Below are positions 12,174 through 59,668 of a DNA stretch of 64,000 nt, in pieces. The stretch lies in IMG/VR virus record IMGVR_UViG_3300042341_001047. One strand, 5' to 3'. The position numbers and the translations under genes are program-made. Position 1 is the first letter of the stretch, and each line of letters starts with the position of its first letter. The notes beneath the pieces are model-generated. The model made no database searches and was not told where the DNA came from. It was given only the letters and a program-made list of their open reading frames with translations. The stretch is from a virus.

Positions 12174-12794
12174 TTATTTATTAAAAGTTTTTTCATAAAC
12201 ATTCCTAATGGCTTTTATACCATTTGGTTGAATCTCTCTTGTTCCTATACCCGCAAAATTTTGAGAAGTTATAGAAGGAACATCTTTCATTTCAACAAAT
12301 TGAAGAGTTGAGTAAGACCATCTAAACCACTTATCTCTAACTTGATCAAATACAAATACTTCTTTTTTATTATTTATACCCATCATTACTGCATATCCGG
12401 TACCACCATCGACAATATCAAATTCACCTTTATTGTAATATCCTTTTGAATTTTTGTGACCAGATTTAATAATTGTGCTAATTGCAAATATTTGATCCGA
12501 GTATTTCACTTGAGACCAATTACGAGCTAGCAAATTCATATACTTATGAATTCCATATCTATTTAGAAACTTATTTGCTTTATTAACTTCAATAACACCT
12601 TCATTATAATCATCATCTGAAATTTCAACTTTATTAGGTGATGTGTGTTTAGGTGTTTTATGAGAGTAGGCTCTGGTAGTAACATCATAGGTAACTCCTT
12701 CGTTTTCCCAGACGGTATCCGCTCCGACTGCACCACCAGAATGACAAACTACTTTTGTCAAGTCAATGGGTTTTTTATCAAAAATATCAATCAT
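12174..12794 (-). CDS. SLOG/DprA-like nucleotide-binding protein
   Basis: HSGGAVGAD, LARN, GGTGYAV, FAGIGTR. Confidence 0.7.
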   Translation of the reverse strand: MIDIFDKKPIDLTKVVCHSGGAVGADTVWENEGVTYDVTTRAYSHKTPKHTSPNKVEISDDDYNEGVIEVNKANKFLNRYGIHKYMNLLARNWSQVKYSDQIFAISTIIKSGHKNSKGYYNKGEFDIVDGGTGYAVMMGINNKKEVFVFDQVRDKWFRWSYSTLQFVEMKDVPSITSQNFAGIGTREIQPNGIKAIRNVYEKTFNK

Positions 12795-13041
12795 TTAGTA
12801 TTTTGTTTATTAAAAATTCTCTCTTTATCGATAAATCCTTTTCAAAAAATAGATTTATCGAATTTTCTCCACTAAAAGAGCTATAGATATTCAATTTATA
12901 TTTACAATCTTGATAATGTTTATCTAAGTATTTAATTATTAAATATCTAGCATCATCTATATTGGTTACTTTATCACTATACGGAACATCAAAACTCTCC
13001 ACTAAGTTTTTATTAGTTTCTAAATAAATATTTATCATCAT
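12787..13041 (-). CDS. Hypothetical protein ending KREFLINKILND
   Basis: ORF track, operon overlap. Confidence 0.6.
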   Translation of the reverse strand: MMINIYLETNKNLVESFDVPYSDKVTNIDDARYLIIKYLDKHYQDCKYKLNIYSSFSGENSINLFFEKDLSIKREFLINKILND

Positions 13042-13905: not shown

Positions 13906-14235
13906 TTAGTTTAATACCTGTTTTATTTTTTCGTCTCTTTGATAAGCTTTATAATCTTCTCCTTCCGTGATAAAATATTCTGACATTTCTTGTTCAGTAA
14001 AATAATACCACTTTATTCTCTCACTATATGGTAAATTCCACCAATCTTTTCTACCAGAATGATATCCATGTTGATCATCTTCAACACAAAAACCATATCC
14101 TTTTCTACCATTAACTTCTGGATCAGCATTAAATTCTAAATTACCTCTTCCTTTGATATCATAATGACTACCAACTTTAATAGTTTTGTATTCTTTGACA
14201 CAAACAACTCTTTGACAATCCCATCTATCTTCCAT
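13906..14235 (-). CDS. Hypothetical protein ending RDEKIKQVLN
   Basis: ORF track. Confidence 0.6.
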   Translation of the reverse strand: MEDRWDCQRVVCVKEYKTIKVGSHYDIKGRGNLEFNADPEVNGRKGYGFCVEDDQHGYHSGRKDWWNLPYSERIKWYYFTEQEMSEYFITEGEDYKAYQRDEKIKQVLN

Positions 14236-14392
14236 CGAATAGTTTTTTAATTTTATATTTTCTAGCTTTTATAACATTAACTCTACATCTTAACTTGGAT
14301 AACTCTGAGTAAACATCAGTTACATTCATAGCACCGTAGCTCGAGTTCAAAATCATCTTGTAATAAGCTAATTTACTTTCTAATTCTCTCAT
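14225..14392 (-). CDS. Unannotated 55-aa protein with PolB motif-B-like KMILNSSYG and RKYKIKKLF tail
   Basis: Manual translation MRELESKLAYYKMILNSSYGAMNVTDVYSELSKLRCRVNVIKARKYKIKKLFDGR; ATGA overlap with upstream gene and overlap with downstream start. Confidence 0.7.
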   Translation of the reverse strand: MRELESKLAYYKMILNSSYGAMNVTDVYSELSKLRCRVNVIKARKYKIKKLFDGR

Positions 14393-20477: not shown

Positions 20478-21716
20478 ATGGCAAAACAATCAGGTAAAGA
20501 AGTAAAAAGATTCGAATTTAGTAAGGTAGGAACTATATTAGATAATATAGCAAAATCAACTCCAATTTTAATCGAAAAAGAACTGAAAGAAAGAAATTAT
20601 ATTTCAACTGGAAATTATCTTTTAGATGCGGCTCTTTCTGCAAAATTAGTAGGAGGTGGTATTTTAGGAGGTAGAATATTCGGACTTTTAGGAGAATCTG
20701 GTGCAGGTAAGTCATTTATCGCTTACTCTATATGTAAATCAGCTCAAAGAAAGCAAGATTATAGTGTGATATACATTGATACTGAGAACTCAATAGATAT
20801 CGAAGGTATAGCTAAAATGGGCATTGATAACTCACCAGAAAAATTCAGATTAATTAGATCTAATAAAGTTGAAGATATAAATATTACATTAACACAACTA
20901 TTAGATGAATTAAAAAATCAAAAAATGGCAGGATATGAAATTCCAAAGATTCTAATAGTATTAGACTCTATTGGTATGATGTCTTCTAACAAAGAAAAAG
21001 CGGATTTACTAAAAGGTGATATGAAACAAGATATGACTAGAGCTAAACAATTAAATGCTCTTTTTAGAAGTATTAGTTCTGATCTTGGATATTTAGATAT
21101 CCCCATGGTATGCTGCAACCATACATACTTGACACAAGATTTATTTCCAAGAGAAATAAGTAAGGGTGGTATGGGTCTAGTTTATTCAGCTTCAGTTTTA
21201 GGTTTTCTATCTAAATCAAAATTGAAAACAGGAGATGAGGATGATATGGACTTAGGCCAATCAGGTATCTCGGTTCTTTTCAAAACTCAAAAGAACCGTT
21301 TAGCCAAACCTAAGAAAATTAGATTTGATATCTCTTTTCTAAATGGTTTAAATCCTTACACTGGATTAGATGCTTTCTGTCGTCCAGAATATTTTGAACA
21401 AATTGGTATCGCTAAAGGTAAAATGGATGTTGATAAGAAAACAGGCGAAATGACTTTCATCCCAGGTGGTATCAGATGGTATGTTAATCACTTAAATAAA
21501 TCAGTTACAACAAAACAATTATTTTCATCTGAGATATTTACTCAAGAAGTTCTTGAAAAAATGGCACCAATTGTAAATGATTATTTCAGATTTAGATCAT
21601 TGGATGAAATTGAAGATGTTGAAAAACAATTTAATAGTGTAATCGGAGAAGATGAAGACGAAGATGAATCAAATGGATTCACAGATGCCGCTGACGCAGA
21701 TGATATCTTTGGATAA
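20478..21716 (+). CDS. uvsX: UvsX/RecA-like recombinase
   Basis: GESGAGKS, YIDTE, IVLDSIG, DMTRAK, NHTY, GG.G..YSAS; acidic tail. Confidence 0.9.
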   Translation: MAKQSGKEVKRFEFSKVGTILDNIAKSTPILIEKELKERNYISTGNYLLDAALSAKLVGGGILGGRIFGLLGESGAGKSFIAYSICKSAQRKQDYSVIYIDTENSIDIEGIAKMGIDNSPEKFRLIRSNKVEDINITLTQLLDELKNQKMAGYEIPKILIVLDSIGMMSSNKEKADLLKGDMKQDMTRAKQLNALFRSISSDLGYLDIPMVCCNHTYLTQDLFPREISKGGMGLVYSASVLGFLSKSKLKTGDEDDMDLGQSGISVLFKTQKNRLAKPKKIRFDISFLNGLNPYTGLDAFCRPEYFEQIGIAKGKMDVDKKTGEMTFIPGGIRWYVNHLNKSVTTKQLFSSEIFTQEVLEKMAPIVNDYFRFRSLDEIEDVEKQFNSVIGEDEDEDESNGFTDAADADDIFG

Positions 21717-30465: not shown

Positions 30466-31014
30466 ATGAAACACATTAAAAAACATCCTATTAATGATAA
30501 AGCTCAGAAGCTTTCAAAGGATATAAAAAAACAAGATCATAGTAAACCAGCATCAAAAAAGAAATTAGACGCTGATAAATCTTTAAGTGATCCTGAGGTT
30601 TCAATGAAGGTAACTAAACCATCAAATAAAAAATTAAATGGTGAAAAGTTTTTATCTAACCCTACAATCAATACTAAAAAGCCTAATAAACCTTCTAATA
30701 AAAATTTAGATGGTGAGAAGTTCTTAGCAGAAGGACTTAATCATTTAAAAAGATTCAATGAAGAATTCGATTCAAGTGGATATCAATCACACTGGACTAA
30801 ATTTGCTCAATGGTTATGGGAAAAAGACTTTGAATTATATGGTGGTGGAGAAGACCTTCACAATAAATTTATGGAAGTATCTAATGATGATAACTTATCA
30901 TCAGAAGATAAAGCTAGTCAAATTACAAATTATTTAGATGAAAAATGGGGAGTCTATGATGGATATATGTCAGTATATAATTATTTAGAATCTTTATTCA
31001 TGGATGAAATTTAA
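30466..31014 (+). CDS. Hypothetical protein, Lys-rich repeats then internal CTS-like motif
   Basis: KPSNKKLNGEKFL repeats; LNHLKRFNEE. Confidence 0.6.
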   Translation: MKHIKKHPINDKAQKLSKDIKKQDHSKPASKKKLDADKSLSDPEVSMKVTKPSNKKLNGEKFLSNPTINTKKPNKPSNKNLDGEKFLAEGLNHLKRFNEEFDSSGYQSHWTKFAQWLWEKDFELYGGGEDLHNKFMEVSNDDNLSSEDKASQITNYLDEKWGVYDGYMSVYNYLESLFMDEI

Positions 31015-31016
31015 CT

Positions 31017-31044
31017 AAAATCCCACTTAATAAGTGGGATTTTT
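31017..31044. terminator. Bidirectional terminator (CCCACT family)
   Basis: AAAATCCCACTTA-a-TAAGTGGGATTTT. Confidence 0.8.
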
Positions 31045-31284
31045 TATTTCTATAGTTCCGTAAAAGTTATTATTTATAATCTTTTTAGAGTATCTACTCA
31101 TAATTGATTTACTTGGTGAGAATTCATCTTTAACATCTAAACCTAAACCAAATATCTTATTAATCTTTCTTTTTCTACTTACATTCTTAGAAGTATATCC
31201 AGATATAACAGAAGTGGTTGTCAATGGAATATAAGGAGCAAAAACATAACCTTGTTCTAAATTACTTTTCTTTCCTATTATCAT
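31027..31284 (-). CDS. 85-aa protein resembling the C-terminal fragment of a gp23-type major capsid protein, with inserted RKRKINKIF motif
   Basis: GYVFAPYIPL ... FSPSKSIMSRYSKK..NNNFYG resembles the gp23 C-terminal consensus. Confidence 0.65.
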   Translation of the reverse strand: MIIGKKSNLEQGYVFAPYIPLTTTSVISGYTSKNVSRKRKINKIFGLGLDVKDEFSPSKSIMSRYSKKIINNNFYGTIEIKNPTY

Positions 31285-31420
31285 TGAATATTTTTTTAAT
31301 TTTTTCTTTTCTTTTATCTTTTCTAAGAAAAGAACTTAAAAAGTTCATAGAAGAATAGTCATGTAATCTACTTCCAGGTCCACCTAGTACAACATTCCAC
31401 TCATCTCTCGCTTTTATCAT
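31262..31420 (-). CDS. Unannotated 52-aa protein ending RKEKIKKIF
   Basis: Manual translation; overlaps flanking ORFs. Confidence 0.6.
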   Translation of the reverse strand: MIKARDEWNVVLGGPGSRLHDYSSMNFLSSFLRKDKRKEKIKKIFNDNRKEK

Positions 31421-31535
31421 ATAATCTTTTGATTTTATTTTTTCTCTTTTCAGATCTTTCTTTTTTAGACCATCTGAAAATTGAATCTGTTATAGACTCT
31501 TGAAACTCTTTTGATTGATTTTCCCAAATTGACAT
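31401..31535 (-). CDS. Unannotated 44-aa protein ending RKNKIKRLY
   Basis: Manual translation MSIWENQSKEFQESITDSIFRWSKKERSEKRKNKIKRLYDKSER. Confidence 0.6.
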   Translation of the reverse strand: MSIWENQSKEFQESITDSIFRWSKKERSEKRKNKIKRLYDKSER

Positions 31536-31557
31536 AAATATTATACAATAAAATTAA

Positions 31558-31875
31558 CTACTTGTTTTCTGTGTACATATACTTTCTACCAGTATCATTA
31601 TAATCCATTAGATTATTAACAACGGTATCAATCTTATCTTTAGAATCATCAACATCTTTTTTGATAACTTGAAGCGCAGCAATTGAATCATCTATCTGAT
31701 CATTTCCTTTTTTAGAATCACTTTTGAAATTATTTAATTCATTTAGTAATGATTCTACTGATTTTGATTTATCATCCATGATAGAAGCAAAGTCTTTTAA
31801 CTCCTCAATAATTTCTGCTACTCTTTCTGATGAAATATCTACTTGTTCATCTTCATTGAATCTTCTAATTTTCAT
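31558..31875 (-). CDS. Coiled-coil protein with CTS-like N-terminus
   Basis: MKIRRFNE. Confidence 0.6.
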   Translation of the reverse strand: MKIRRFNEDEQVDISSERVAEIIEELKDFASIMDDKSKSVESLLNELNNFKSDSKKGNDQIDDSIAALQVIKKDVDDSKDKIDTVVNNLMDYNDTGRKYMYTENK

Positions 31876-31910: not shown

Positions 31911-32594
31911 ATGAAACGTAAGAATAAGCTTATATTAGAATTCACAGAATTTAACATGCAAAGAATGAACCCTGATTCAGCGGCTCAAACAGTTGGAGGT
32001 GTAGATGATCCGTCATTATCAACAAATGCCTTTGATAAACACTCAGACGCTATTAGACAAGCGATGGGTAGAATTAATGACATCCTTTATAATCTTAGTG
32101 GTACAAGTGCTTATAAAAATCTTAGAAGTAGATTAGCATTAGAACATCAAGATATTCAAAGTATTAAAATTCTAAGAATTGTTAAGAATGAAATTTACTA
32201 TGATGCTTATATCACGTTCAAAATTGATGATTATGAATACTGGGGAGTTATTGAAAATGTAATGAACGCAAATCCAGAATTAACATCAGAAGTATTCAAA
32301 GATTATGACCTTTATCAAAGTAAAGAATGGGTTATTAAAATAAAAGGATTAGTAGTTAAGACTATTAAAACTTGGTTAAAACCAGAGCCAGGAATATACA
32401 GATTATTAAATGATGAAATCATTTGTTACTCTACTGAAACCGGCAAACAACTTAAAATGGATAAAGGAATCGAAATCGAGTTAATAAGATCACATAGTGA
32501 TAAAATTATCATTAAACACGAATCAGATTATTACAACTTAGTTGGTGATAATTATGTTTACTTTAACTGGTGGTTTGAGAAAATTGAAGATTAA
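31911..32594 (+). CDS. Hypothetical protein (probable virion protein)
   Basis: LILEFTEFN near the start; TAATATATA upstream. Confidence 0.6.
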   Translation: MKRKNKLILEFTEFNMQRMNPDSAAQTVGGVDDPSLSTNAFDKHSDAIRQAMGRINDILYNLSGTSAYKNLRSRLALEHQDIQSIKILRIVKNEIYYDAYITFKIDDYEYWGVIENVMNANPELTSEVFKDYDLYQSKEWVIKIKGLVVKTIKTWLKPEPGIYRLLNDEIICYSTETGKQLKMDKGIEIELIRSHSDKIIIKHESDYYNLVGDNYVYFNWWFEKIED

Positions 32595-34693
32595 ATATCT
32601 TTTGGTTTCTTCAATGGTTCAACAATAACTCTACCATTATCATCAGTCCATTCCGTATCATACATATGTTTATCATGTCTTTCTCCGATTACCATCCAAC
32701 TAATCTCATCAGAAGAAGTATTTGACTCGGATATTATCTCAAGTATATTTCCAGTAACTTTTCCTTTAACAGGTGTCCATCCTGTTTCATTTGTTGTAAA
32801 ACATTGAACATCTCTATTTAATAAAACAAAAGTGCCTTCAGTCATATTTGAAGATTCATCTAAATTAATTTCAGATTTACCATTAACTAAGGATACTTTT
32901 CCTCTATAGATCAAATCAGCTTTAGGACCTTCAATGAAGGAGTGTACTAATTCATATTTATCTTTCATAGATTCAATTGGATGATCAATTCTAAAAGATC
33001 CACTACCCTTACTTAAACTACCAGTAACAGATGCATTTGAACTAATGAAGAAATTTTGTTGACCTGTCCAATCTATTGAACATAACGCATTTGAAGAAAT
33101 AACCGTATAACCATTACCAAGAGATAAGTCATATTTGTTTATAGTCAATGTGGCGTTATTTAATGGTGAGTGTATGATAATATCAGTAGCACCTCCTTGT
33201 TTTATCTCCAATTTTTTAGTACCACTTGTGCTAAAAGCAATAACATTAGCACTTGGCATATACATACCACTTTGAGTATATCCATACCATGTGTAATCAG
33301 GAGCCGCTGCCGTTGAAAAAGAAGTACTGACAGCACCTACCTGTATATAAGGAGATTTAGTTGTAGTACCTGTACCTAAACTAGTAGCTGTTGTAAATAC
33401 AACACCACCATTTCCAGCATTTGTTCCTTTAATATGCATTCTAGGTGTTCCATTTGTAGTAAATGCTATTTGATTAGTAGTAGGTCTATAAATACCAGTA
33501 TCAATATCACCAGTAAATGTAATAGATGGAGCTGTTGGAGTACCATTACTATACCTTATTGGTGAAGTACTAAGAGAATATGTAGCATACAATCTAAATG
33601 GAACAGATCCACTTACTGAAAATCCAATAAATGGAGCTGTGTAAACTATTGGAGAAGTACCCGGAATTGCTGTATCAACACCAGCTCCAAATATACCAGA
33701 ATCATTACCAAAAGCAATAGGTGGATTATCAGGTCCATTAAGTTCAGCACTACCAAACATAAGACCTGTAAGGTAATAGGTAGGTAATAACATTTGAGCA
33801 GTAACTGAATTAAATGCGAACCCAGTCCCTCTAGAATTATTGTAATAAGTACTAACACTAGCACCATTCACATTAGAAGCCGTAGATGAAAACATCATAT
33901 ATTTTAATCCACTCGAAGAAGGTGAGACTTGTGAATTATAAACAGTAACGGTGGAAGCTGTTTTAGATCTATCAGAAATTATATTAGTAATCTGACTACC
34001 ATCTCCTTTAAAGAAACCACTTGTTTTTATATTTCCAGTAACATCTAAAATCTCTGCAGGTAAAACAGTAGAGCTCCAATTTGAACCAATACCAACTTTA
34101 TTATTATTTGAAAGATAAATGGTTTGAACAGGAGCTCCTGAACCACCTGGTCTATTTGATATAGATAAATCTCCTTGGTCATTACCAAAGCTAATCAATG
34201 AAGAACCCTTAGATGAGTTAAAATAACCATTACCACCGACAAAACCAGTATAATACCAATTAGAACCAATAATGGTTGTTCCACCTTTATGTATAACCAA
34301 TGGAGGTGCTTGACCCGCAACATAATTAGGATCTTCAGCAAGACTCATTCCACCAAACTGCATATAGGTATTATTACCAGTTGGATTATTAGTACCAACA
34401 CCAATTCTTTTTTCAGTACCTGTGCTAACCTGGAAAACTCCACTATTTCCTATATAATTTTGAGATGTAAATAAAGGAACATATCCAGCTACCCCATTAA
34501 CTTGGTCAGTTATTTCGGCACTGAAGGTAGTGCCATTATAATAGTATGATCTATTATCAGATGTATCAAAAACTCTTAGACCAGTATATTTATATGGTAT
34601 TGAATTTCTAGCAGCAGCACCAGATGCGACTATTCTATTATCCAATGGAGTTGAATTATTTACGGTGAATCCTGTTATTATTTGTATTGACAT
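32591..34693 (-). CDS. Tail fiber-like protein with C-terminal chaperone-like domain
   Basis: Gly/Ser/Thr-rich beta repeats (IGVGTNNP, APSITFTGDIDTGIY); SKGSGSFRIDHP..LVHSFIEGP..RG C-terminus. Confidence 0.75.
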   Translation of the reverse strand: MSIQIITGFTVNNSTPLDNRIVASGAAARNSIPYKYTGLRVFDTSDNRSYYYNGTTFSAEITDQVNGVAGYVPLFTSQNYIGNSGVFQVSTGTEKRIGVGTNNPTGNNTYMQFGGMSLAEDPNYVAGQAPPLVIHKGGTTIIGSNWYYTGFVGGNGYFNSSKGSSLISFGNDQGDLSISNRPGGSGAPVQTIYLSNNNKVGIGSNWSSTVLPAEILDVTGNIKTSGFFKGDGSQITNIISDRSKTASTVTVYNSQVSPSSSGLKYMMFSSTASNVNGASVSTYYNNSRGTGFAFNSVTAQMLLPTYYLTGLMFGSAELNGPDNPPIAFGNDSGIFGAGVDTAIPGTSPIVYTAPFIGFSVSGSVPFRLYATYSLSTSPIRYSNGTPTAPSITFTGDIDTGIYRPTTNQIAFTTNGTPRMHIKGTNAGNGGVVFTTATSLGTGTTTKSPYIQVGAVSTSFSTAAAPDYTWYGYTQSGMYMPSANVIAFSTSGTKKLEIKQGGATDIIIHSPLNNATLTINKYDLSLGNGYTVISSNALCSIDWTGQQNFFISSNASVTGSLSKGSGSFRIDHPIESMKDKYELVHSFIEGPKADLIYRGKVSLVNGKSEINLDESSNMTEGTFVLLNRDVQCFTTNETGWTPVKGKVTGNILEIISESNTSSDEISWMVIGERHDKHMYDTEWTDDNGRVIVEPLKKPKDI

Positions 34694-37959: not shown

Positions 37960-38061
37960 TTACTTATCAGACTTTTTAGAGAATATCTTTTCAATTGATT
38001 TCTTTCTTCTATTTTTTCTTTGAATAGAATTTGAAATGTAGGGATAGTGTGGTAACGGCAT
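37960..38061 (-). CDS. Unannotated 33-aa peptide MPLPHYPY...RKKSIEKIF
   Basis: Manual translation; ATG 2 nt after upstream stop; ends in a terminator hairpin. Confidence 0.5.
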   Translation of the reverse strand: MPLPHYPYISNSIQRKNRRKKSIEKIFSKKSDK

Positions 38062-52893: not shown

Positions 52894-53527
52894 AAACTAC
52901 AATGAATATATAAATCAAAATGTTCTTTACATATTTGATTTTGACGACACGCTTGTTAATACACCAAGCTACGAGGAACTCGCTATCCAATTTTTAAAAG
53001 AAGACGTAACAATAAAAGATTTATTAAATCAATCGGTTAATAGAATAGGCGTTACATTAAATGATCTAAAGTGGCAAGACGGAAGAATCTATGTAATGGA
53101 TATCAATAAACAACTAAAAGAATTTGGCAACTGGGTAAGAAAAGGTGACAGAATGTATATGTTGTCTCCAAATTTATTTCACACATCTGATATAAGTTTA
53201 CCAAGTACATTAAAAAGTCTTTCTAAGTTATACAAATCAGTTGATAATAAATGTATAGTAACAGCTAGAGAGGAATCCATAAGAGATAAAATAACAAATA
53301 AATTATTAGAACTTGGACTAGAAATTCCTAAATATGGTTTACATATGGCACCAGTTGGTACTAAAAATGCAGGACATTGGAAAGGTGAGAAGATAGTTGA
53401 AATACTAAAAGAAACAGGATTCCAAAAAGCTATCTTCTATGATGATAATTCTAAATATATTAGAAAAGCAACTAAAGTAGTAAGAGAAAAGATGCCAAAT
53501 ATACAATTTGAACCAGTTAAGGTTTAA
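52880..53527 (+). CDS. HAD phosphatase (Swiss-Army-Knife RNA-repair HAD-like) with CTS-like N-terminus
   Basis: FDFDDTLVNTP, IVTAR, K, FYDD; MTKIKNYNEYIN. Confidence 0.7.
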   Translation: MTKIKNYNEYINQNVLYIFDFDDTLVNTPSYEELAIQFLKEDVTIKDLLNQSVNRIGVTLNDLKWQDGRIYVMDINKQLKEFGNWVRKGDRMYMLSPNLFHTSDISLPSTLKSLSKLYKSVDNKCIVTAREESIRDKITNKLLELGLEIPKYGLHMAPVGTKNAGHWKGEKIVEILKETGFQKAIFYDDNSKYIRKATKVVREKMPNIQFEPVKV

Positions 53528-55053
53528 TATACTTCAGCTTCTAATCTTTTAATTTCATCCATTACTTCTTTTAACTCTTCTTTCTTATCCATCATCACTT
53601 TCTTAGCTTTCTTTCTATCAGCATAAACATCTTCCAACATAATCAACGTAGGTGACTTTCTTTTCTCAAATACAACACCATTGACACATAAAACATGTTG
53701 AGATAAATCTATAGGTCTTCCATTCGTACATTTAGATTTATCTTTCTCATCTTGAACTCCGACAAATGTTTCAGGAGCAATAAAGAATTGTCTTTGAGTA
53801 GTCGGATAAAGAGAAGCAAAGTCATAAGTAACACACCACTGATTCATACCAACCACCGGATCCTTAACCCAACCACCAGCAATTGTAGATTCAGCATCTC
53901 CTTTCTCATCTCTAAAAAGAACAATGTTTTCCATATCACGGAATTTGTTTCTTAAAACTCCTTCTGTAATAGCCAATGAGCCTAAAGCGTTATTCATTTG
54001 AGAGACAACATCAACAATTCTAATTTGAGCTAATGAAGAAATCGCATAAATAATTGAAATATAGTTACGAGCGTCGTGTATCTTCTGAACTAGAACACTA
54101 TCGACAGCGTTATAATACATAAAGGTTTCAAAGTCATCTTCATATAACTTTTGTAATGAACCGTTATACTTAATCTTTTCAACCCCAACTAACTTATTAG
54201 AAACGAAATCTAAAGATGATGATTCTTTTACTTTAATAGAAGTATCACAAATTTCATATAATTGCATATAATCGAAAATCATTCTATGAGCTGGTACCTC
54301 AAACTCAGTAGACCAAATCTTATTCATCTTTTTAGTTAAAGAAGAAACAGCTGGATCAATTTTATATTCTTTACCATTTACCCATTTAGAAATCTTTCTT
54401 GATCGGTTTACTAAATACAACCAGTCATATTGAAGGAAGTTCCATCCTGTTAGAATAGGCATCTTAGGAATCATCTTATAGAAGAAAGCATATAACATAT
54501 CAAATTCATCTTCATATTTGATATACTTGAATTTATAATCAGCTCCGAATTTTTCAAAATACTTGTTAGTATTATCCTTGATTCGTTGTTGCATATCTTC
54601 TGGCATTTCTTTAAGACCTAAAAGAATAATTTTGTCGTCATAAACAATAGATATAGATAGAACTTGAGTTGAAGCTCCTTCTTTTGTTACATTACCATTA
54701 ACGTCTTTAATATCAGCCGCTTCTGGGAAACCGTCAACGATTTCTGTTTCAATATCTATAAAGTAAATATTAGGTAAGTTAAACTCAAATATCTCATTCT
54801 TCTCAGATTCTGGAAGTGAGTCTAGGAACTCATAAATAGCATATCTATCTGGATGATTTACTTCTATCTGTTTAACGGATTTACCATCCCAAGATTTGAA
54901 TTCTGGATGTTTTTGAGGATCGTTATCTTCACAAGCCACATATTTCATTGGATCTTCCCAATTGTAATATTTTAGTTTTATATCACCAGACTTATCAACA
55001 TAACTTACTACTAGTTTTTTACTATTTGTTAGGTATTGTGTTTCTACGAGCAT
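53524..55053 (-). CDS. Family B DNA polymerase, N-terminal half (exonuclease plus motif A) of a split enzyme
   Basis: DIETE, GWNFLQYD, YNAVD, GGWV, YDFASLYP; stops after RKKAKK, lacking motifs B and C. Confidence 0.88.
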   Translation of the reverse strand: MLVETQYLTNSKKLVVSYVDKSGDIKLKYYNWEDPMKYVACEDNDPQKHPEFKSWDGKSVKQIEVNHPDRYAIYEFLDSLPESEKNEIFEFNLPNIYFIDIETEIVDGFPEAADIKDVNGNVTKEGASTQVLSISIVYDDKIILLGLKEMPEDMQQRIKDNTNKYFEKFGADYKFKYIKYEDEFDMLYAFFYKMIPKMPILTGWNFLQYDWLYLVNRSRKISKWVNGKEYKIDPAVSSLTKKMNKIWSTEFEVPAHRMIFDYMQLYEICDTSIKVKESSSLDFVSNKLVGVEKIKYNGSLQKLYEDDFETFMYYNAVDSVLVQKIHDARNYISIIYAISSLAQIRIVDVVSQMNNALGSLAITEGVLRNKFRDMENIVLFRDEKGDAESTIAGGWVKDPVVGMNQWCVTYDFASLYPTTQRQFFIAPETFVGVQDEKDKSKCTNGRPIDLSQHVLCVNGVVFEKRKSPTLIMLEDVYADRKKAKKVMMDKKEELKEVMDEIKRLEAEVY

Positions 55054-58290: not shown

Positions 58291-59157
58291 TTATATACCT
58301 ATTTCTAGTTTAGTTGATAATTTTTTTATACCATCGATATTAAATATCGAAAAGTCATCAATTGTTATATCATAGAAGTTTTTATTAGAAGTCAATTCTA
58401 ATATTGGTTGAATCTCAATTGGATTTCTATTTAATATCTCAGCCAAACCATCAAAATGTCTATCATAGACATGAAGATTCTGAACAAAATGACAAAACTT
58501 ACCTACTTTATAACCTAAATGTGAAGCGACCATCATCTGCAAAGCCACATACTGAATCTTATTTATATATCCAGCCATAATGTAGTCATTACTTCTTTGA
58601 TTCAAAGTCATATCTAAATAAAAGAAATCACCTTCTTGGACATCACTAGTAGTTTTCTTACATCTACTTCTTCTTACAGACCAAATGGTTTCATAAGCAC
58701 AAGGATGTAATCCTTTAGTTTCAGCCATATCCGATTCTTGATACATATTCATTATATGTCTTCTTGAAAACGGATCCTCTTTCAAAGATTTTAATAACTT
58801 ATTCATTAAATCATATCTCTGAACAGTAGCTCCATATCTTTGACCAATAGTATCATCACCAACATTCCATTCATCCCACCAATTAATACCCATTTCTCTA
58901 GCAACTGCTAATGAGTTAGTTTGTTTTTGATAAATCCAAAGTATTTCTTTGATACCTGTTTTAATAGCTGTGTTTCTCAATGTAGTAATTGGAAATTCAC
59001 CTTTTGATAAATCATATTCCTCAAATACTTGTGTTATAAATTTAGAATGTGCTTTTTCACCATCTGCATATTTAGGTCGAGGATCCTCATCCCAAGTACC
59101 ATCACCTTGTGATATTCTATTTAAGTTATCTATGTAATATTTATCAGCCTTAATCAT
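58291..59157 (-). CDS. thyA: Thymidylate synthase
   Basis: ELLW-like EILW, WDEW, SRRH, LHPC, QRSND, N..QY, HVYDRH. Confidence 0.95.
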   Translation of the reverse strand: MIKADKYYIDNLNRISQGDGTWDEDPRPKYADGEKAHSKFITQVFEEYDLSKGEFPITTLRNTAIKTGIKEILWIYQKQTNSLAVAREMGINWWDEWNVGDDTIGQRYGATVQRYDLMNKLLKSLKEDPFSRRHIMNMYQESDMAETKGLHPCAYETIWSVRRSRCKKTTSDVQEGDFFYLDMTLNQRSNDYIMAGYINKIQYVALQMMVASHLGYKVGKFCHFVQNLHVYDRHFDGLAEILNRNPIEIQPILELTSNKNFYDITIDDFSIFNIDGIKKLSTKLEIGI

Positions 59158-59668
59158 TTAATATTGAATTTATTTTTTGTTCTCTTATAATAATTTTTAT
59201 AAAGTCATCACTATTATAAGATTCTCCTTCTGTCTTTAATAAAACTTTTTTTCTTTTTTCCTCATCACTATATTCATTGGTGATTTCTAAAAATTTTGAA
59301 TTTTCAGTAAATTTTAATTTATTAACATCTAAGCAAGTAAATATTTTTCTAACTTTTATATTCATAATATTATTAAATACCTCATCAGATATATAATCAG
59401 CATCATCAACTATAAGTAAATTATAATCTTTAATATCAATTATTTCGGTAGCCTTTTCAATTATTTTTAAATTATTATACTCAGATGAATTTAGAAAATC
59501 AAAACTATCAAACTCTTTCATCACACTTCTTAATTCTGAAAACTCAGAAGTAGCACCAATAAAAAATACTTTTAACCCATATTCTTTCAAAGCGATTGAA
59601 ATATCAATCAAAAACTGACTTCTACCCGAACCTCTTTCACCATATATAATATTTAATTCACCAGTCAT
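59150..59668 (-). CDS. Degenerate P-loop NTPase ending IREQKINSIL
   Basis: GERGSGRS (Lys to Arg), LLIVDD. Confidence 0.55.
   Translation of the reverse strand: MTGELNIIYGERGSGRSQFLIDISIALKEYGLKVFFIGATSEFSELRSVMKEFDSFDFLNSSEYNNLKIIEKATEIIDIKDYNLLIVDDADYISDEVFNNIMNIKVRKIFTCLDVNKLKFTENSKFLEITNEYSDEEKRKKVLLKTEGESYNSDDFIKIIIREQKINSILND

Follow-up and report, generated by a model that had tools for sequence, protein, structure and literature searches.

A tagged mini-protein matching the C-terminal strands of T4-type capsid proteins, in a cassette of overlapping micro-ORFs from a huge-phage contig

Why would a phage encode, far from its real capsid gene, an 85-residue protein that reads like the end of a T4-type capsid protein, and why would this protein share a short basic motif with the two micro-ORFs that precede it? 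These questions are raised by positions 31027-31535 of the window, that is, the whole 64,000-nucleotide stretch of DNA that was analysed (bases 31792-95791 of a 175,660-bp virus contig; G+C 29%). The closest named relatives, LR745206 and LR756502, are uncultured phages of 635 and 642 kb, and homologous loci are also found on metagenome contigs of up to 630-660 kb, indicating that the contig is a fragment of a huge phage.

The layout of the locus was found to be as an earlier note on this DNA had described it, with three overlapping minus-strand ORFs of 44, 52 and 85 aa that all carry the motif R-K-x-K-I-x-[KR]-[IL]-[FY], referred to here as the tag. ORF1 (31401-31535) is a tagged micro-cistron of 44 aa with its tag at 31419-31445, five residues before the end, and ORF2 (31262-31420), likewise a tagged micro-cistron, of 52 aa, has its tag at 31286-31312, seven residues before the end. 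In the 85-aa ORF3 (31027-31284) the tag, R-K-R-K-I-N-K-I-F (31150-31176, minus strand), lies 40 residues before the end. The three ORFs overlap head to tail, every following ORF being in the +1 frame. The ATG codons of ORF2 and of ORF3 lie 0-1 nt past the preceding tag, with that of ORF2 overlapping the end of the first tag, and the end of ORF2 overlaps the start of ORF3.

An extended -10-like box, TGTATAAT (31540-31547, minus strand), is located 4 nt upstream of the ORF1 ATG; it is kept across seven aligned loci and directly precedes ORF3 in relatives that have neither ORF1 nor ORF2. Its sequence suggests a candidate promoter. The box was missed by a consensus promoter scan that demands a -35 hexamer, and a promoter motif census of TGTATAAT and TATAAATA gave no clear promoter class. 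At the other end of the cassette, a hairpin of 12 pairs resembling a bidirectional intrinsic terminator (31017-31043; inverted repeat I7) covers the last codons and the stop of ORF3, such terminator-like sites being found twice against 0.4 expected. Scanning the locus with Rfam returned nothing at threshold.

The genes flanking ORF3 are tail-fibre-like or of unknown type, and head genes are not among them. In the nine related loci a gene for a 105-aa protein (31558-31875) always precedes ORF3. The convergent neighbour downstream of ORF3 (30466-31014, plus strand) encodes 182 aa here and 299 or 100 aa in relatives, or is absent from them, and this variability points to a gene-turnover hotspot around the shared terminator. 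The gene at 32591-34693 (minus strand) encodes a tail-fibre-like protein of 700 aa, whose counterparts in relatives end in a peptidase S74 (intramolecular chaperone) domain; over 280 nt, its DNA is ~70% identical to that of a Prochlorococcus phage P-SSM2 tail-fibre gene. A similar leader, M-K-x-x-[KR]-F-x-E, opens many neighbouring proteins (ORF starts 31875, 30464/29898, 15828 and 31911) and recalls the protease-cleaved capsid-targeting leaders of T4-type phages.

The relationship of ORF3 to capsid proteins was examined by profile, translated and pairwise searches. The earlier note had likened ORF3 to the C-terminal part of T4 gp23-type capsid proteins, interrupted midway by the tag, and all of these searches support that reading. 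A match to Pfam Gp23 (PF07068), which the note had proposed as a check, was obtained with E 6.5e-4 over profile positions 306-354 of 376, its score of 19.7 bits falling below the curated cut-off of 24.4 bits; at E ≤ 0.01 the same profile matched 26 of 33 ORF3 relatives (best 2.3e-5), and two ORF3 homologues carry a precomputed PF07068 hit. With tblastn, ORF3 found the 3' ends of annotated capsid genes in Microcystis phage Mel-JY01 (2e-6) and Flavobacterium phage immuto (3e-4). The alignment is collinear over the last ~58 residues up to a common stop, interrupted by an insert of ~22 residues that holds the tag, and ORF3 keeps the signature residues of gp23-type capsid proteins. ORF3 also aligns with the phage's own capsid protein (583 aa; Gp23 profile positions 6-355), at a pairwise E of 1.5e-4 that is weaker than the values of 3e-11 (Mel-JY01) to 2e-8 obtained with canonical T4-type capsid proteins. 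A second, canonical full-length capsid gene was looked for in the complete relatives and not found, each of them having a single full-length Gp23 match.

What ORF3 reproduces, as a gene of its own, is the end of a T4-type (gp23) major capsid protein from the P-domain β-hairpin through the final strand, three strands in all, with the tag inserted in the hairpin tip. It shares the signature residues, the stop and the last ~58 residues with gp23-type capsid proteins, but comprises 85 aa as against more than 500 for T4 gp23 (PF07068; PDB 5vf3, 6uzc). ORF3 was rejected as a complete Gp23 member: the N-arm, the E-loop, the spine helix and the A-domain core are all missing, the profile is matched at positions 306-354 only, and no HK97 fold is possible. 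The T4 vertex protein gp24, an accessory paralogue of the capsid protein, offers a parallel in that it, too, is encoded by a capsid-protein-derived gene kept alongside the real capsid gene; gp24, however, has the HK97 fold over its full length, whereas ORF3 is a three-strand fragment. Solved structures, searched with a profile of the ORF3 family, yielded no match.

T4 numbering was transferred to ORF3 by aligning the Mel-JY01 capsid protein with the T4 gp23 PDB chains. Strand 1 of ORF3 corresponds to T4 gp23 residues 447-456, including A455 of the P-domain sheet, the insert to T457-K465 (the P loop) and the return strand to 466-478. In T4, the gp23 substitutions T457A, R460C and G461S change head length, and at these sites the P loops of three adjacent capsomers meet at the quasi-threefold axes (PMC9546572). 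The position of the insert at T457-K465 indicates that the tag replaces the P loop. Fold prediction gave models of moderate confidence (mean pLDDT 51.5 and 67.9), in which an α-helix over residues 33-45, containing the tag, is the best-supported element (block pLDDT 79-86 in the deeper alignment) and the remainder is extended. From these models, the capsid-derived strands are predicted not to hold a stable fold alone.

ORF3 belongs to a large unannotated family of ~80-aa phage proteins. It has 356 close homologues of constant length (~85 aa) with 74-96% identity, and the family profile recovers 362 clusters at 50% identity, nearly all of ~80 aa; of the best 150 clusters, 138 lie below 150 aa, and full-length capsid proteins account for only a few. 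Likewise, the neighbours of ORF3 in the ESM Atlas are ~80-aa clusters that carry Pfam Gp23. Between pairs of relatives, dN/dS lies mostly in the range 0.13-0.5 and reaches 0.77 in one pair; the adjacent 105-aa gene gives 0.03-0.11. The homologues, the clusters, the dN/dS values, the conserved upstream box and the terminator together establish ORF3 as a real, selected gene. A pseudogene or decaying fragment, one of the outcomes that the earlier note had named as fatal to its own reading, was rejected on the constant length of the 356 homologues and on the dN/dS values. In a separate observation, dS between relatives is clearly lower for ORF3 (0.15-0.8) than for the adjacent 105-aa gene at 31558-31875 (0.3-2.3), for which an additional constraint on the nucleotides, or gene conversion, may be responsible. 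In the literature searched, neither mini-proteins made of capsid fragments nor a tag of the R-K-x-K-I type was found described; the capsid-hairpin mini-protein family is widespread and undescribed.

The tag proved to be a genuine shared motif. With expectations taken from 40 fifth-order Markov simulations, the strict motif occurs six times in the 175,660-bp contig, always on the minus strand, against 0.0 expected, and a looser pattern occurs 17 times against 0.5. A position matrix at a score of ≥ 12 gave 24 hits in ORFs as compared with one in shuffled ORFs, the scores of ORF3, ORF2 and ORF1 being 24.4, 25.1 and 19.8, respectively; 19 of the 24 hits sit 0-9 residues from the end of their ORF. 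The family pattern in this lineage can be written R-[KDE]-x-K-I-x-x-[IL]-[FLY].

The position of the tag relative to the capsid-derived strands varies within the ORF3 family. In the syntenic orthologue of LR745206 (L001 3384-3611, minus strand) the hairpin has a short canonical loop and the tag lies nine residues before the end, while some family members are circularly permuted, with strands 2-3 followed by strand 1 and then the tag. Further members have two tags, or are untagged and extended at the N-terminus; overall the tag is present in 59 of the 138 small family representatives. It is an autonomous, position-independent protein module, which in the ORF3 lineage takes the form of a nine-residue basic amphipathic helix, R-K-x-K-I-x-K-I-F, and at least 19 other small ORFs of the contig end in this helix.

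Conserved residues of the tag are encoded by differing synonymous codons, and between tag copies there is no DNA-level repeat, palindrome or target duplication, the matches being limited to low-complexity stretches of 12-20 nt. These two observations place the constraint on the peptide and not on the DNA, and a selfish in-frame DNA repeat of the RPE or MITE type was ruled out. The Rickettsia palindromic elements resemble the tag as short translated inserts at varied places in coding sequences; the tag differs in having neither DNA repeat nor palindrome nor target duplication, and in being conserved at the amino-acid level. An origin as a copy of the end of the capsid spine helix was rejected, all six capsid proteins scoring below 5 on the tag matrix; in the capsid fragment at L004 1450-1665, the tag replaces the native helix and is not aligned to it. 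A MinD-type membrane-targeting helix was set aside, many copies being net neutral or acidic.

The tagged ORFs, which are often arranged in runs, carry bodies of diverse kinds. A 55-aa micro-ORF (14225-14392, minus strand; tag 14237-14263) has a body weakly like the start of motif B of a split family-B DNA polymerase; of the polymerase fragment to which the earlier note had linked ORF3, what stands is this weak match (E 0.007 in a two-sequence search). Directly downstream lies a tagged ORF of 109 aa (13906-14235, minus strand; R-D-E-K-I-K-Q-V-L, one residue before the end, score 18.8). Others encode 84 aa (12787-13041, minus strand; R-E-F-L-I-N-K-I-L, two residues before the end, score 12.2) and 33 aa (37960-38061, minus strand; R-K-K-S-I-E-K-I-F, six residues before the end, score 15.3). 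A tagged ORF of 172 aa (59150-59668, minus strand; R-E-Q-K-I-N-S-I-L, two residues before the end, score 22.3) weakly matches P-loop NTPases (AAA_22, E 2e-4; TK, E 4e-3; both under curated cut-offs), suggesting that the tag is also borne by proteins unrelated to the capsid. Zinc-ribbon proteins are tagged as well, and recognisable core-protein content is absent from most tagged ORFs. The presence of the tag on zinc-ribbon and weakly P-loop-NTPase-like proteins means that its reader need not be a component of the capsid.

The split polymerase itself has an N part of 509 aa (53524-55053, minus strand) that ends after motif A; in LR745206 the C part (474 aa; L023 442-1866, minus strand) starts just before motif B and ends in a tail like that of T4 gp43, V-M-D-I-F-G-G.

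A 71-aa ORF outside the window (L004 1450-1665; contig 102988-103203, minus strand), with the tag at its end, reproduces another part of canonical T4-type capsid proteins, from the return strand of the E-loop to halfway along the spine helix (E 7.6e-12 to Mel-JY01); BLASTP against the capsid protein of the phage itself gave no hit. The contig contains three further partial capsid paralogues, at contig positions 110230-110979 (minus strand), 100190-100972 (plus strand) and 20625-21158 (minus strand), corresponding to loci L005, L007 and L006; two are C-terminal halves (249 and 261 aa) and one is an N-terminal piece, and some have tag-like motifs. Both C-terminal halves have their nearest match in the capsid protein of the phage itself. 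The affinities of the N-terminal piece are mixed, its start being of own type (W02, E 4e-7; own, 2e-5) and its residues 137-155 resembling immuto (1e-5). The possibility that the dispersed capsid fragments tile one split gene was rejected, two of them having their own C-terminal strands.

The descriptive part of this account is firm: ORF3 is a conserved capsid-hairpin mini-protein, the helix is shared at the level of the peptide, and the cassettes turn over at the tag. As to mechanism, we infer from sequence a tentative reading, with a probability of roughly 0.35, in which the tag helix would be an address or docking peptide read by one putative partner, and the strands derived from the capsid protein would work as mimics in the region where capsomers touch. 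The strands probably engage the capsid lattice or unassembled capsid protein by strand or hairpin mimicry in the quasi-threefold contact region. ORF3 might then be a head-assembly accessory or modulator, used for the phage's own assembly or against that of another; as it is nearer to canonical capsid proteins than to that of its own phage, a competitor-directed or decoy role fits at least as well.

Address labels of HK97-fold shells are known from the T4 capsid-targeting sequence, the C-terminal tail of the HK97 protease and the cargo-loading peptides of encapsulins. Like the tag, they are short peptides common to unrelated proteins, act independently of the body and are in several cases C-terminal. 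The tag differs from them in sequence, in being helical and basic and in that it can be placed in a loop. For the strands, an analogy may be drawn with donor-strand complementation and with dominant-negative fragments, in which, as would be the case for ORF3, a strand of a structural protein could act only by pairing with a partner sheet.

In a first alternative, which we regard as unlikely, the core-protein snippets would be decoys or adaptors that occupy or divert host sensors, the tag recruiting a common neutralising partner. CapRel, Lit and some CBASS or Pycsar systems are among the defences set off by capsid proteins, and ORF3 keeps the canonical T4-type residues and not those of its own capsid protein. 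At least one other tagged ORF, the L004 copy at 1450-1665, follows the same pattern of a canonical capsid segment with no match to the own capsid protein, and the fast turnover of the cassettes is often seen in accessory genes. However, we know of no defence system that reads the C-terminal P-hairpin, most tagged ORFs lack recognisable core-protein content, and anti-defence genes are typically much less widespread and less stable than ORF3.

A target in other phages is a second, similarly doubtful, possibility. During co-infection with a canonical T4-type phage, ORF3 would bind that phage's capsid protein before assembly, or its lattice as it forms, and keep capsomers from making contact at the quasi-threefold sites; the diverged capsid protein of its own phage would be insensitive. 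This is consistent with ORF3 being more like the capsid proteins of T4-type phages of Flavobacterium and Microcystis than like that of its own phage, with the replacement of the P loop, a mediator of capsomer-capsomer contacts and of T4 head length control, by the tag, and with the prediction that the strands do not fold alone. The shared residues, though, may simply be those that a hairpin requires, and the sharing of the tag with unrelated proteins is left unexplained.

Elements of both alternatives meet in a modular 'snippet plus label' system of large uncultured phages, a speculative scheme to which we give little credence. Short conserved pieces of hallmark proteins (the capsid P-hairpin, the E-loop with the start of the spine helix, perhaps polymerase motif B and the terminase P-loop) would be carried as micro-proteins on one docking helix, and a common reader would blind host sensors or poison competing T4-type phages. 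The cassettes would be shuffled by recombination at the label.

The behaviour of ORF1 and ORF2 was followed across the nine related loci. Both are missing from L020 and L033, where ORF3 stands alone behind the TGTATAAT box; in L021 they have collapsed through a tag-to-tag deletion, and in L013 and L001 unrelated tagged ORFs take their place. In L019 they form an in-frame fusion of 81 aa and in L018 they are split, the two loci differing by one base in a G-run (locus ~1870-1880) that may be a real polymorphism or an assembly error. The boundaries of exchange are the tag and the ATG that follows it. The tag-coding stretches are where ORF1 and ORF2, both tagged micro-cistrons, have been acquired, lost, joined or exchanged. 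Their collinearity with the capsid protein, plausible by eye, was ruled out by the absence of any Pfam hit at E ≤ 10 and of any BLASTP hit to six capsid proteins; the earlier idea of a core-protein fragment was therefore not borne out for these two ORFs, which are dispensable, variable cassettes.

Such turnover invites the reading, improbable in our judgement and limited to ORF1 and ORF2, that they are short-lived, near-neutral debris of recombination at tag-coding stretches upstream of the selected ORF3; it is compatible with any reading of ORF3. Besides their absence, collapse, replacement, fusion and splitting in the loci above, this is favoured by the highly divergent, indel-bearing bodies of both ORFs and by the 17 homologue clusters of ORF2 (48-61 aa) as against 356 homologues for ORF3. 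Set against it are dN/dS values below 1 (0.33-0.64 for ORF2 and 0.19-0.38 for ORF1) and the maintenance of ORF length. Moreover, the start codon, the N-terminus and the tag of ORF2 are invariant in the 17 clusters, part of which may be explained by overlap with neighbouring frames.

It is very unlikely that the tag binds a sliding clamp in the manner of the T4 gp43, gp33 and gp55 tails, recruiting small proteins to a replication and late-transcription clamp. The one feature that suggests it is spacing: the V-M-D-I-F-G-G end of the LR745206 polymerase has the h-x-x-h-F-G arrangement that recurs as I-x-x-I-F-G in several tags, and the T4 tails, near the C-terminus of small proteins, have h-x-x-h-[FY]-G. 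T4 gp33 provides the precedent of a small protein with a clamp-binding tail. The tags, by contrast, are basic or of mixed charge and not acidic-hydrophobic, several are internal, and the capsid-derived bodies are left unexplained. No gp45-type or β clamp was found with PF02916, PF09116 or PF02768 in the contig or in two complete relatives, although divergence could hide one. Least credible of all is a single ORF1-ORF2-ORF3 polypeptide, for which ribosomes would have to undergo programmed +1 frameshifting, or bypass, within the A-rich tags: both junctions are indeed +1 and within A-rich runs, and in-frame fusions occur elsewhere (L019, P0137, P0154 and P0190), but every ORF opens with a conserved ATG immediately past the tag before it, L020 and L033 have ORF3 by itself downstream of the TGTATAAT box, and neither a conserved shift site or stimulatory structure nor an Rfam match was found at the locus.

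Whichever target the strands may have, hundreds of phage lineages conserve a gene that consists solely of the inter-capsomer contact hairpin, and its conservation in several topologies implies that the fragment has a use of its own. With its tag in the loop that controls head length in T4, ORF3 is a candidate for studying how very large capsids are sized or held together, or how one phage sabotages the assembly of another. In the reading that we prefer, in which the helix is an address for one partner, the tag would mark some 20 small proteins for a single putative reader, and identifying that reader would place a good part of the 'dark' small genes of huge phages in a context.
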